Shown: in pieces, positions 12,473 to 19,170 of the stretch
Numbering within the stretch: position 1 is the stretch's first letter
Layout of the letters: each line of letters starts with the position of its first letter
NCBI GenBank assembly: GCA_035939115.1
Contig: DASZGF010000205.1
Location: 10,561-74,560, forward strand
Length of the DNA stretch: 64,000 nt
Origin: Candidatus Binataceae bacterium
Lineage (GTDB): Bacteria; Desulfobacterota; Binatia; Binatales; Binataceae
Direction: 5' to 3'
Translations under genes and position numbers: made by a program
Notes under the pieces: model-generated
What the model was told of the DNA's origin: nothing
What the model saw: the letters and a program-made list of their open reading frames with translations, nothing else
Databases searched by the model: none

Positions 12473-13924
12473 ATGATGTCATCATCGGCCATCGATAATA
12501 ATAACCTGGCTCGGTCCGATTCATCGGGGGACGGCGAGGTCGCCTCGATCCGGGGTTCGGTCGTGGAGGTGCGCTTCCCACTCGACGGCCTTCCGTCGAT
12601 TAACGAGGCGCTCGACGTGATATGGGACGGAGAAGGGCGGCTCACGCTGGAAGTGCAATCGCATATCGATGACCGCCACGTGCGGGCGGTCGCAATGAAC
12701 AAGACCTCAGGCCTGGCGCGCGGTACCAAGGTGAGGCGGACCCGAGCACCGATTGCAGTCCCCGTTGGTAAGCCCGTACTGGGACGGCTGGTCGACGTGA
12801 TGGGCGAGCCGATTGACGGTCTCGGACCGTTCGCTCCTCAGACCGAGCGATGGCCGATCCATCGCCTTGCACCCAGCCTTGTGCGGCGCAAGCCGGGCCG
12901 CAGCATGTTTGAAACCGGAATCAAAGTTATCGATTTGCTGGCTCCGTTGGAGCACGGCGGCAAGGCCGGGATGCTGGGCGGAGCGGGCGTGGGGAAAACG
13001 GTCCTGGTGATGGAGTTGATTCACGCTATGGTCGAGCGCTATTCGGGCATCGCCGTGTTCGCGGGTGTCGGCGAGCGCTCGCGCGAGGGCCATGAACTGC
13101 TGTTGCAGATGCGCAGCTCAGACGTGATACGACGGACGGTGCTGGTATTCGGGCAGATGAACGAGCCGCCAGGAGCACGCTGGCGCGTGGGACTCACCGC
13201 GCTGACGATCGCCGAATACTTTCGCGACGTAAGCGGCGATAATGTGCTGTTCCTGATGGACAACGCGTTCCGCTTCGTGCAGGCCGGCGCCGAAGTCTCC
13301 GGACTATTGGGGCGGATGCCGTCGCGGGTCGGATATCAGCCTACGCTGGCCTCGGAGATTGCGGCGCTGGAGGAGCGGATCGCGTCGGTGCCCGGCGCCG
13401 TAATGACCGCGGTCGAGGCCGTTTACGTTCCCGCCGACGACTTTACCGATCCGGCCGTCGCGGAAATCTTCAGCCATTTGGACAGCTCAATTGTGCTGTC
13501 GCGCGCGATGGCTACCGAGGGATTGTATCCGGCGATCGATCCACTGGCCTCGACCTCGGTGCTGTTGGACCCGCGGGTGGTGGGAGAGGAGCATTATCGT
13601 ACCGCGCAGGAAGCGCGCAGCACCATCGAACATTACCGCGAACTTGAAGACATCATCGCTATATTGGGAATCGATGAATTGAGCCCCGCGGACCGCGTGG
13701 TGGTCAAGCGCGCGCGACGCTTGCAGCGCTTCTTAACCCAGCCGTTCGCGGTGACCGAAGCCTTCACCGGTCAGAAGGGCCGTACCGTCCAACTGGCGGA
13801 CACGCTGCGCGGATGCCGCGCGATTCTGCAAGGCGAGTGTGATGAGATGGCGGAGGCGTGGTTCTATATGATTTGCACTATCGATGAGGCGCGCGAGCGC
13901 GAGGCCGTCCAGGCCGGGCACTGA
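12473..13924 (+). CDS. atpD: F-type (N-ATPase) ATP synthase beta subunit
   Basis: Walker [18 protein letters not shown] and [14 protein letters not shown]. First gene of an atpDCQRBEFAG arrangement. Confidence 0.9.
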
Positions 13925-13925
13925 G

Positions 13926-14360
13926 ATGCGGCTCGTCATCACAACGCCGATGGCGGTCGTGGTCGATATCACCGGCGTCGTTCACGTGCGTGCCGAAGAC
14001 GAAACCGGGACTTTTGGGATACTCGATCGTCATGACGAGTTTCTTACCGCGCTGGCGGTGTCGGTTGTGAGCTGGCGTCTGGCCTCGGGCCGCGAGGGAC
14101 ACTGCGCGGTGCGCGGCGGCGTGCTTTCGGTGTCGGGCGGCAAGGAGGTCGCGATCGCTTCCCGCCAGGCGGTGATTGGCGACGATCTCGGTCACCTGGC
14201 GGACAAGGTCGTCGCCGAACTCAAACGTCAAGCCGAGCAGGATGAAGTGGCATGGACGCACTCGGCGCAGATGCGCCTGCGGGTATTGCGGGAGCTTTCA
14301 CGTTCGACCGCTCTCGGCGGCGCGCGCCCGCAGCATCCGCTCGGCGGCAAAGAACAATGA
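13926..14360 (+). CDS. atpC: ATP synthase epsilon subunit
   Basis: MRLVITTPMAVVVD...GTFGILDRHDEFLTAL is a typical epsilon N-terminal beta-sandwich. Starts 2 nt after the atpD stop. Confidence 0.75.
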   Translation: MRLVITTPMAVVVDITGVVHVRAEDETGTFGILDRHDEFLTALAVSVVSWRLASGREGHCAVRGGVLSVSGGKEVAIASRQAVIGDDLGHLADKVVAELKRQAEQDEVAWTHSAQMRLRVLRELSRSTALGGARPQHPLGGKEQ

Positions 14361-14671
14361 AGTCTCCGCACGATCAGGAAAAGCCTGGACCACGGCCTGA
14401 GCCGGGTCGCAGCGACCTGCCGCATCAGGCGCGTCTGCGCAGTGAACGGCGCGCGCGCTTTGAGCGCGAAGGCGAGCGGCCGGTGGGCAGGAATCTGGCC
14501 CTGATGGGCTCGCTCGGATGGCTGATCGTAATCCCGGCATTGCTTGGGATGGGTGCCGGCATCTGGCTAGATCGGACCTTTAATACCGGCGTGTTCTGGA
14601 GCGGGGCGCTGCTGGTCGGTGGCCTTGGCCTCGGATGCTGGCTGGGGTGGCAGCGCGTTAACGAGGAGTGA
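14357..14671 (+). CDS. atpQ: AtpZ/AtpI-like small membrane protein of N-ATPase operons
   Basis: ATGA overlap with atpC. LGWLIVIPALLGMGAGIWLDRTF...GALLVGGLGLGCWL gives two TM helices, as in the ATPase_gene1 family. Confidence 0.65.
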   Translation: MKSPHDQEKPGPRPEPGRSDLPHQARLRSERRARFEREGERPVGRNLALMGSLGWLIVIPALLGMGAGIWLDRTFNTGVFWSGALLVGGLGLGCWLGWQRVNEE

Positions 14672-16644: not shown

Positions 16645-18174
16645 CCGTTGGCTGGAGGACGCGCCTAAACGTCTGGCCAGCCTGACGCTCCAACCGATCG
16701 CCGAAGCTTTTGGGAGGGTCGAGGATGTCGGCGATGGAATCGCCTGGGTCTCAGGGCTGCCCGGGACGCGGCTGGATGAAATTCTCGTCTTTGCGGGCGG
16801 CGTCCGCGGCTTGGCCGTCGATCTCGAGGCCGGCCGTGCCTGATGCTACCTGCTGGGCGGCGAAGAGCCGGTGACCGCGGGTAGCCGCGTGCGCGGCACC
16901 GGAGCCGTGGTACGGGTGCCGGTCGGCGAGGCGCTGCTGGGACGCACGGTCGATCCTTTGGGCAATCTGCTTGACGATGGCGACCCGCTCGCTCCCGAAC
17001 GGATGGACCCAATCGACCGTCCCGCGCCTGGAATAATCGATCGCGATCTGGTCACGCAGCCACTTTACACCGGCCTGATGGTGATCGACGCGATGTTCCC
17101 GATCGGGCGCGGCCAGCGCGAGCTGATTATCGGCGACCGTTCAACCGGCAAGAGCGCTATAGGTGTCGACACCATCATCAACCAGCGCCGCTCCGACGTG
17201 ATCTCGGTCTATGTCGCGGTCGGCCAGCGTTCGTCCGCGGTGCGCGAGGCGATCGAGGCGGTGCGCACTCATGGCGGGATTGAGCGCTGTATCTTTGTAG
17301 TCGCCGACGGCGACAGCGCGCCCGGCCTGCAATGGCTCGCACCCTACGCCGGAATGACAATAGCGGAGTATTTCCGCGACTGCGGTGGCCATGCCCTGGT
17401 CGTGATCGATGACCTGAGCAAACACGCCGCGGTTCATCGCGAGCTCGCGCTACTGCTGCGTCAGGCGCCGGGGCGCGAGGCCTATCCCGGCGATATTTTT
17501 TATACCCACGCGCGGCTGCTGGAACGCGCCGCCAAACTCGGCGAGAAACGCGGCGGCGGGTCGCTGACCGCGCTACCGATAGCTCAGACTCAATCGGGAA
17601 ACCTGAGCGCCTACATCCCGACCAACCTCATCTCGATAACCGATGGGCAAATTTGCCTGGACTCCAAGCTGTTTTACGGGGGCCATCATCCCGCCGTCGA
17701 CGTCGGCAAGAGTGTGTCGCGGGTGGGCGGCAAGACCCAGGCCCCCGCCTTGCGCACGCTGGCCGAGCCGCTGCGGCTGGCGTACGCGCAGTTCCTGGAA
17801 CTGAAGATGTTCGCCCGCTTCGGCACTATCATGGACGAGCGCACCGGCCGCGAGCTTGAACAAGTCGCCGGCTGCGCGCGATGTTGCAGCAGGCCCAGTA
17901 TTCGCCGCGCCCGATGGAAATCCAGGTGGCCCAACTGTTGGCGCTTCAGGAGGCGATCGTCGACAAGATACCCTTGGAGCAGATGGCGGCGTTCGCGGCG
18001 CGCCTGCCCGAATGGCTTGCGGCGCATGCTCCCGATGTAATCGCAAAACTGGAGCACAGCGGCGAAATGGACGCGGCAAGCCGTGCCGCGCTGAAGAATG
18101 CGATCCAGTCGCTGGCTAACGAATTTACGGCAGGACAAGAGGAGGGGAACGTGCAAACCGGCCTGCCTGTTTGA
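16613..18174 (+). pseudogene. atpA: ATP synthase alpha subunit with an in-frame TGA and one frameshift
   Basis: GDRSTGKSA Walker A and conserved alpha blocks. There is an in-frame TGA at 16841-16843 (…[16 protein letters not shown]…). A 1-nt shift near 17864 joins ORF 16871..18040 (…RELEQ) to ORF 17881..18174 ([14 protein letters not shown]…). Confidence 0.8.
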
Positions 18175-18324
18175 TGTCGCGTATCTTCCCTGTAAGCGGC
18201 AGACGGTTTGCTGTACCTCTTCGGAACGCGGGGTTTTTCTGAAACCGCTCCGACATTCAGTTATAGGGAGGCCAGGGTGAAGGGATTTGATACGTTTCAA
18301 GCACAACCATAACCACCCTTGATA

Positions 18325-19170
18325 ATGGAACGGCTGTCCGAACTCGAAACGCGCATCTCCAGCTTCGCGCAATTGCAGGACGTGATCAGCGTAATGCGGT
18401 CGCTGGCTGCCAGCCGCATCCAGCAGGCACAAAACGCGCTGGCCGCGATTCGCGGCTACAGCGATACGATAGGCGCCTCGATCGCCAAGGCGGAAAGCTA
18501 CCTGACGCTGGAATGGGTAGGGCGCTCTCGCGATGGTTCCTCGGTGCATGGGCTGATTTTGTTCTGCGGCGAGCACGGGTTTTGCGGCGCCTTCAATGAG
18601 AAGCTCCTCGAAGCGGTGCAGGAAACTCTCGGACGCACGGAGCTTTACGTGGTGGGCAGTCGCGGTGCCCTGATGTCGCAGGAGCGCAAGGTCCCCGTCG
18701 CGTGGAGCACTGCCATGGCGACCAGTATCGGCACGATCACGACGGTGGCCCATCGCGTGGGCGAGGCGCTATACGAGCGGTTCAGCCGGGGTGGGATAGC
18801 GGATGTGATGATGGTGTTCGCGCGTTACGGAGGCCAAGGTCGTTTCTCAATAGAGCGCGAGATGCTGTTGCCGTTGGATCTGGGGCGCTTCCGCCGCTAC
18901 CTAACGCGGCCGGCGCCGCGGAGCAACCTTGCGCCCAGCCATCTTATCGACCGGCTGATAGAGGAATACTTCTTCGCGCAACTGGTGCGCGGAGCCACCG
19001 AGAGCTTCGCCAGCGAGAACGCCGCGCGGGTCGCATTAACTCAGTCGGCTCGCCATTCGATCGAAGGCAGGCTAGAGGAACTCACCAGGGAACAACGGCA
19101 ACTGCGCCAGGAACAGATCACCACGGAGATCCTCGAAGTCATCTCAGGCGCGGAAGCGTTGGAGAAGTAG
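18325..19170 (+). CDS. atpG: ATP synthase gamma subunit
   Basis: MERLSELETRISSFAQLQDVISVMRSLAA... with C-terminal ...QEQITTEILEVISGAEAL. Last gene of the operon. Confidence 0.8.
   Translation: MERLSELETRISSFAQLQDVISVMRSLAASRIQQAQNALAAIRGYSDTIGASIAKAESYLTLEWVGRSRDGSSVHGLILFCGEHGFCGAFNEKLLEAVQETLGRTELYVVGSRGALMSQERKVPVAWSTAMATSIGTITTVAHRVGEALYERFSRGGIADVMMVFARYGGQGRFSIEREMLLPLDLGRFRRYLTRPAPRSNLAPSHLIDRLIEEYFFAQLVRGATESFASENAARVALTQSARHSIEGRLEELTREQRQLRQEQITTEILEVISGAEALEK

Follow-up and report, generated by a model that had tools for sequence, protein, structure and literature searches.

An N-type ATPase operon with an interrupted alpha-subunit gene beside a hydrogenase operon in a Binataceae bacterium

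In a stretch of 64,000 nucleotides from a Candidatus Binataceae bacterium (the window, on contig C205 of genome G000, a draft of 289 contigs with an estimated contamination of 6.64%), nine genes on the plus strand between 12473 and 19170 encode a rotary ATPase in the order beta, epsilon, AtpQ, AtpR, a, c, b, alpha and gamma, that is, atpDCQRBEFAG (Table 1). They form a true ATPase operon of the N-type (alternate F-type), a family that is already known and is recognised by hidden Markov models, and the alpha gene, atpA, is interrupted twice. I consider it probable that this is an ordinary N-ATPase operon which was recently pseudogenised via atpA, and that the [NiFe] hydrogenase operon upstream of it is a coincidental neighbour, the result of a one-off rearrangement.

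An earlier note on this DNA, made from the letters alone, had proposed the gene order and strand, the presence of two extra small proteins together with the absence of atpH, and the assignment to the N-ATPase class, and in these respects it is borne out by the open reading frames and by Pfam, which recognises all nine products. The two models that it had named, PF12966 for AtpR and PF09527 (ATPase_gene1) for AtpQ, both match above cut-off. AtpR is the sole PF12966 match in the G000 genome; its start is uncertain, the Pfam match beginning at residue 27, and against TIGR03165 it reaches only 27.3 bits at a cut-off of 55.5. The reading frame of atpQ is open from 14252, and the translation points to the ATG at 14357 as its likely start, in a 4-nucleotide overlap with the stop of atpC. 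Pfam finds no reading frame within the operon that consists of an OSCP domain only; instead, AtpF has a delta-like tail, with PF00430 at residues 5-135 (71.1 bits) followed by PF00213 (OSCP) at residues 166-239 (26.4 bits, cut-off 22.3), and an alignment with its counterparts in G002, G005 and G006 spans the whole of the protein. The NCBIfam models for the 'alternate F1F0 ATPase' are the best or second-best match for beta, epsilon, c, b, alpha and gamma and the fourth for a, most of these matches scoring under very high 'exception' cut-offs. The order atpDCQRBEFAG is also present at 10 related loci; among the six genomes of the same genus searched besides G000 it is carried by four (G002, G004, G005 and G006), and six genomes of the same family carry it as well.

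The beta subunits were compared in a maximum likelihood tree, in which the N and F labels were given by gene order, with 24 N-type rows and 19 F-type rows (with 18 of 67 canonical loci chosen across phyla, and with the F-type beta of G000 itself among the rows). The window beta and 23 other betas of atpD-first operons are set apart from the 19 F-type sequences with a branch support of 100/100, and the canonical beta of G000 falls on the F-type side. A canonical F-ATPase elsewhere in the genome, which the earlier note had named as a point to confirm, was looked for and found: on C91 there are open frames for b', b, delta, alpha, gamma, beta and epsilon (atpF'-F-H-A-G-D-C), the a and c genes are located on C16, and the window operon is a second copy beside this typical enzyme. 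The branches that place the genus clade against the family clade have low support (83/65 and 87/72), and I make no claim for a lateral or a vertical origin of the operon.

The N-ATPase family, in the available part of its description by Dibrova, Galperin and Mulkidjanian (2010, PMC2881411), has the same gene order with AtpR, and with AtpQ where other operons have AtpI, the same absence of atpH and a long atpF with a delta-like C-terminus, a glutamate in both c helices, a constant occurrence as an additional enzyme next to a typical F- or A-type ATPase (here an F-ATPase), and subunits that branch away from those of the F-type (here the beta subunit). The window operon differs from that description in that its atpA is inactivated, and the operon thereby pseudogenised, and in that its c subunit has ETMxxY and not the full Na+ set ESTxxY of the Na+-translocating majority, as Met replaces Thr at the third position of the motif. 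N-ATPases are described in the same source as ATP-driven outward ion pumps rather than ATP synthases, and an intact version of the window enzyme, if it worked like the N-ATPases characterised so far, would hydrolyse ATP in its alpha3beta3 head, which would rotate gamma, epsilon and the c-ring and so pump ions outward.

The ion site of the c subunit reads, in translation, E31 and E64-T65-M66-A-I-Y69, and in an alignment to solved c-rings E31 stands at the position of the helix-1 Gln and E64 at that of the ion-binding Glu. The N1No enzyme of Burkholderia pseudomallei, as far as the available part of Schulz et al. (2017, PMC5376962) describes it, has a c17 ring that was measured to be H+ specific and to hold 17 subunits. 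It comes from the same type of operon, shares an alanine-rich packing motif in helix 1, and its Glu30, Glu61, Thr62, Met63 and Tyr66 correspond to E31, E64, T65, M66 and Y69 of the window, although the loop between the two glutamates is two residues longer in the window c subunit. The window operon also differs in that its alpha gene is broken and its host is a soil bacterium and not a pathogen. Because the residues of the window site match those of this H+-specific ring, the coupling ion is more likely H+ than Na+. In the translated operon an arginine can also be seen, by eye only, inside the hydrophobic stretches 'ALGRFALTV' and 'GFVLARVAAV'.

The word 'complete', which the earlier note had applied to the operon, has to be withdrawn. 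The atpA gene is split in three pieces by the TGA at 16841-16843 and by the deletion of one nucleotide after 17862. A single-frame translation of 16613-18330 meets a stop after 76 residues and loses its alpha-like sequence after about residue 415; the C-terminal domain resumes in another frame at 17881-18174, and PF00306 is divided by frame, with its positions 1-42 in one and 49-125 in another. The orthologues of atpA in G002, G005 and G006 are uninterrupted, and the remaining eight genes of the window operon align to their orthologues at full length in a single frame, with atpG, whose likely start is the ATG at 18325, following the atpA remnant after a gap of 145 nucleotides. A functional rotary ATPase has uninterrupted frames for all of its core subunits, and the window operon does not. 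The architecture of F1 depends on the N-terminal and C-terminal regions of alpha alike, both to form the hexamer and to bind the stalk; because alpha is cut short here at codon 77, with the C-terminal domain out of frame, I infer that an alpha3beta3 head could not form and that the enzyme could not be assembled.

In order to examine the two lesions, Logan contigs (not raw reads) of four sequencing runs were compared with the window over 16500-18400. Two contigs of X7, an independent soil metagenome that carries no flag as a possible source, cover 16500-17126 (record 17) and 17110-17940 (record 22) with 0 differences and 0 gaps, such that both lesions are present, and a contig of X13 (record 1) covers 16770-17102 with 0 differences and has the stop as well; X9 covers neither lesion. 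In the RNA library X24, a contig of 208 bases (record 16) matches 17667-17874 exactly and covers the site of the deletion, which is a weak hint of transcription of the region, with carry-over of DNA as a possible source.

Three other causes of the interruptions were considered and rejected. Reassignment of a stop codon does not account for them, as the three in-frame stops in the broken genes of the window are a TGA in place of Gly in the relatives and two TAGs in place of Tyr, and they occur alongside frameshifts. A programmed frameshift at 17862 is contradicted by the lack of a slippery heptamer in the sequence and of any shift at that place in the relatives. Genome-wide sequencing error was assessed with the open reading frames of the relatives' loci as tblastn probes against G000, 78 of which have an orthologue outside C205. 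Initially 13 of the 78 were flagged, until the 'stops' of the flagged stop-bearing probes turned out to lie in spurious N-terminal extensions of the reading frames, in C-termini or in poorly aligned stretches, and at most one or two possible lesions are left among the 78.

The ratio of nonsynonymous to synonymous substitutions (dN/dS) between G000 and G004, its closest relative, is 0.110 over the concatenated operon (1866 codons, dS 0.65), no higher than the 0.150-0.164 found among intact operons. This value, together with the eight intact genes, argues that the inactivation is recent: strong purifying selection acted on the operon during almost the whole time since G000 and G004 diverged. In the reading that I prefer, the operon was handed down in this soil genus as an additional rotary ATPase next to the housekeeping F1Fo, until a change from Gly to stop in the N-terminal domain of atpA and the loss of one nucleotide, which removes the C-terminal domain, knocked it out.

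In G004 itself, insertions of one nucleotide are observed in atpA (aligned to window position 17952) and in atpF (aligned to 16081). As G004 is assembled in about 50 long contigs for 7.3 Mb, these could be indel errors of long-read assembly; if they are real, two sister lineages have lost the function independently. On that basis one might propose that the sister lineages G000 and G004, which have the largest genomes of the genus, both lost this N-ATPase not long ago and each on its own, while strong purifying selection still acts on the rest of the operon. Such repeated loss could be adaptive in soil that is not saline, where a proton pump driven by ATP would be costly, and in G000 it would belong to a broader, ongoing decay of an 'energy island' together with a P-type ATPase, hypE and hypF. 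I regard this as a speculative and rather unlikely extension. G004 also has an insert of about 640 nucleotides between atpA and atpG (locus L017 on C21, ~17290-17850), encoding a small protein which I take to resemble a DUF559/Vsr-type endonuclease domain.

Alternatively, the window operon may still be functional, if the lesions are errors or belong to a minority, or if they are bypassed by read-through, by a restart at the GTG at 16871 or by a separate C-terminal piece from the ATG at 17881. A possible start codon does stand at or close to the beginning of every one of the three atpA pieces, the RNA-library contig may indicate that the region is transcribed, and the intactness of eight of the nine genes and the low dN/dS can be read in the same way. 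I consider this improbable, as both lesions recur without differences in independent contigs, and as no slippery sequence is seen around 17855-17880. A restart at 16871 would cost about 86 N-terminal residues and the frameshift would still leave the C-terminal domain out of frame, and by general knowledge of F1 both lost regions would be needed; the further stops and frameshifts in genes of the same window fit decay.

With regard to the hydrogenase operon, its last gene, for a maturation endopeptidase, ends at 12213 and atpD starts with the ATG at 12473 on the same strand, a spacer of 259 nucleotides exactly as the earlier note had given it. A large part of this spacer is taken up by a dispersed repeat (Table 1), whose copies are 73.5-83.9% identical among the matches listed and which occurs in dozens of copies in G004 and G005. 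A second repeat family, at 19185-19315 after the operon, has 2 matches in G000 and many in G003, G004 and other members of the family. The two repeats belong to different families (blastn E = 0.89), which is why a simple composite transposon is not supported. Rfam gave 0 matches across the window, the spacer repeat included, the fold of the spacer repeat is no better than that of its shuffles (z = 0.13), and scans of 11600-19500 for promoters and terminators gave 1 and 5 sites, respectively, where 1.6 and 5.9 are expected from shuffles.

The proximity of the two operons is not conserved in the other genomes examined. Proteins of the hydrogenase operon are absent from the flanks (7-12 kb upstream) of all 10 related N-ATPase loci, and the orthologous hydrogenase operon lies on another contig in G004, G002, G005 and G006. 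In a survey of 401 genomes of the phylum, G000 included, 45 carry AtpR; the 44 carriers other than G000 and 10 relatives make up a set of 54 genomes, 38 of which have a NiFe large subunit somewhere, and none of which has one within 10 kb of the N-ATPase operon, the test being incomplete for at least 9 of the 54, where a contig ends less than 10 kb upstream of atpD. The nearest cases are found in G349, at 13.7 kb on the opposite strand and with a long, group-1-like subunit, and in G215, at 17.9 kb and without beta and gamma subunits. Among named public genomes, 80 loci were retrieved with the beta subunit, 13 of which show the N-type order, and in the flanks of these 13 none of six hydrogenase-operon proteins has a match.

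The pairing of N-ATPase and hydrogenase is thus not conserved in the genomes examined, which is not to claim that it is unreported. The genome of 'Ca. Nitrospira alkalitolerans' holds an N-ATPase and hydrogenases of groups 2a and 3b, and shares with G000 the combination, within one genome, of both ATPases (canonical F-type and N-type) with a 3b hydrogenase; however, the available part of the source (PMC7784846) describes this co-occurrence and not adjacency, and there the c subunit is reported to have the Na+ motifs and the operon all of its genes. Adjacency in the window had been put down to coincidence or to co-regulation, and a survey of N-ATPases and hydrogenases in other genomes had been named as the measure of this idea; with no such neighbours within 10 kb in the 54 genomes, at the 10 related loci or at the 13 named ones, co-regulation is not supported and coincidence is the better reading. 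The adjacency would be a lineage-specific rearrangement with a dispersed repeat at the junction, and no functional module.

The gene that follows atpG in G004, G002 and G005 has its G000 orthologue 365 bp from the end of C132, which means that either the operon was relocated in this lineage or the assembly has a break at this place. The second possibility, an assembly chimera in which C205 joins two loci wrongly at the repeats that flank the operon, would be in line with this displaced gene, with the 34-copy repeat upstream and the other repeat family downstream, and with the absence of the junction from the independent contigs scanned, even though that search, for an exact pattern of the hydrogenase/atpD junction in metagenome contigs, is uninformative either way. 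It nevertheless seems very improbable to me, as the listed copies of the spacer repeat are too diverged to be merged by a k-mer assembler, nothing in the end of C132 matches either junction of the window, and the hydrogenase and the N-ATPase of the window are both closest to G004, which is consistent with one genome. Least credible of all is a co-transcribed stress module, in which read-through from the hydrogenase genes would bring the ATPase genes to expression and couple the export of ions to the redox state of NAD(P)H/H2: the shared strand, the short gap and the absence of a terminator-like site from the plus strand of the spacer in a consensus scan agree with it, but the adjacency is lacking at the related loci, the relatives have their hydrogenase on other contigs, the nearest cases among the 54 genomes are unrelated hydrogenase types, the spacer is a dispersed repeat, the promoter and terminator scans do no better than shuffles, and the ATPase itself is broken.

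Against a recently silenced operon with a coincidental neighbour, which I prefer, several points have to be weighed. The eight intact genes and the low dN/dS could also be those of an operon still in use, and, as contigs drop rare variants, a minor intact allele of atpA could coexist in the population. The hydrogenase/atpD junction was looked for in independent contigs and not found, and H+ coupling is deduced from motif identity. Finally, G000 has a duplicate hydrogenase operon on C229 and a duplicate hypDEF on C101, and given its contamination, some of what is found 'elsewhere in the genome' could belong to a co-binned relative.

Table 1. Positions of the features discussed, in coordinates of the window.
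Feature	Position	Strand	Remarks
P-type cation ATPase pseudogene	45-2560	+	three frames vs 949-aa G005 orthologue; breaks ~518-520 and 1925-1926
Luciferase-like monooxygenase, N-terminal fragment	2592-3003	-	degenerate, multi-frame; ~16 kb upstream of intact copy
hyhB-like beta	7167-8312	+	Pfam Fer4_22; intact
cNMP-binding protein	8339-8794	+	Pfam cNMP_binding; intact
hyhG-like gamma	8668-9690	+	NAD_binding_1+DHODB_Fe-S_bind; intact
Hydrogenase small subunit	9699-10481	+	Oxidored_q6; intact
Hydrogenase large subunit	10363-11751	+	NiFeSe_Hases; intact
Maturation endopeptidase, last gene of hydrogenase operon	11761-12213	+	PF01750 30.7 bits; TIGR00072 71.6 (cut-off 47.45)
Dispersed repeat in spacer	12205-12325	.	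34 blastn matches in G000 including itself; much of the 259-nt spacer
atpD, N-type beta	12473-13924	+	483 aa, intact; PF00006, PF02874, PF22919; 92.6% identity to G004
atpC, epsilon	13926-14360	+	144 aa, intact; PF02823 50.5 bits; full-length alignment to relatives
atpQ	14357-14671	+	PF09527 38.6 bits (cut-off 26.6); TIGR02230 62.7 (cut-off 46.7)
atpR, N-ATPase hallmark	14619-14948	+	PF12966 49.7 bits (cut-off 26); 109-aa open reading frame
atpB, a subunit	14882-15616	+	PF00119 160.1 bits; start uncertain; conserved Arg within 'MVRLFGN'
atpE, c subunit	15613-15870	+	85 aa; PF00137 55 bits; two-carboxylate site
atpF, long b with delta-like C-terminus	15880-16644	+	254 aa, intact
atpA, alpha, pseudogene	16613-18174	+	open pieces 16613-16843, 16871-18040 and 17881-18174
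In-frame TGA in atpA	16841-16843	+	codon 77 from ATG 16613; GGA (Gly) in G004, G002, G005 and G006
1-nt deletion in atpA	17862-17863 (after 17862)	+	single-column gap, in G000 only, in DNA alignment of five genomes
atpG, gamma	18319-19170	+	intact; PF00231 170 bits; 80% identity to G004 over residues 3-283
Luciferase-like monooxygenase, intact copy	19327-20406	+	
hypF, broken	23293-26062	-	frameshift near 25520; TAG 23611-23613, Tyr in G001
hypE, broken	26697-27888	-	frameshift near 27362-27364
Paralogous [NiFe] large subunit in kinase operon	44397-46057	-	two frames vs 588-aa subunit of G001

The operon next to the N-ATPase is supported as a group-3b-type [NiFe] hydrogenase by its predicted products, because the set of subunits (an AsrA-like beta, a cNMP-binding protein, an AsrB-like gamma, the small and large subunits and the endopeptidase) and the best NCBIfam matches agree. 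These matches are the Shy/Hyd subunits of the Pyrococcus sulfhydrogenase (sulfhyd_ShyB/C/D/A), all of them below cut-off. With sulfhydrogenases I and II of Pyrococcus furiosus (3b) the operon has in common the four subunits beta, gamma, delta and alpha; it differs in scores far under the equivalog cut-offs (for example, 252 bits against 700) and in the extra gene for a cNMP-binding protein between beta and gamma. That gene is kept in the same place in G004 and G001 with 84-88% identity, and each of the hydrogenase genes aligns in a single frame to its orthologues in these two genomes.

G000 has a second 3b-type hydrogenase operon at C229:13264-19004, in a position syntenic with that of the relatives, and a second copy of hypD, hypE and hypF at C101:31555-37548. 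The copies on C229 and C101 are closer to G001, and those of the window closer to G004; the duplicates may be paralogues, or else their contigs come from a co-binned relative.

Other genes of the window are broken or duplicated as well. The P-type ATPase pseudogene has, besides its frame changes, an in-frame TAG at 2147 in place of a Tyr codon in the relative. The hypA, hypB and hypD genes of the window appear intact, and the reading frame of the broken hypF includes, at about 24870-25000 on the minus strand, some 45 residues rich in Gly, Arg and Glu, which do not look like HypF and resemble translated repeat DNA elsewhere in the window. The large subunit in the kinase operon lies in the frames 46057-45089 and 45104-44397, with open reading frames at 45086-46084 and 44304-45089 that overlap by 4 nucleotides, and may be a split or frameshifted gene. 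The degenerate monooxygenase fragment, which is inverted, and the intact copy bracket the segment of hydrogenase and N-ATPase; in G004 there is a single monooxygenase copy, the neighbours of which map to other contigs of G000. Outside the window, the orthologue of a 698-residue protein of G005 is split in two frames at C233:22211-24302, with an intact copy at C142:472-2562 on a short contig; the split frame came from a secondary match and lies beyond the tally of 78 probes. The nearby C233:24200-26800 resembles in translation what I take to be an antitoxin/PIN toxin pair.

Beyond correct annotation the significance of these observations is small, as N-ATPase operons are a described family with AtpR in 45 of the 401 genomes of the phylum that were searched. 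In the annotation of the window copy atpA should be marked as a pseudogene, metabolic reconstructions of this soil lineage should leave the operon out when they credit it with ion pumps, and its adjacency to a hydrogenase should not be taken as a functional link. More generally, calls of gene presence from the metagenome-assembled genome G000 overstate function, and the recently broken P-type ATPase, atpA, hypF and hypE provide a small natural example of the loss of accessory energy genes.

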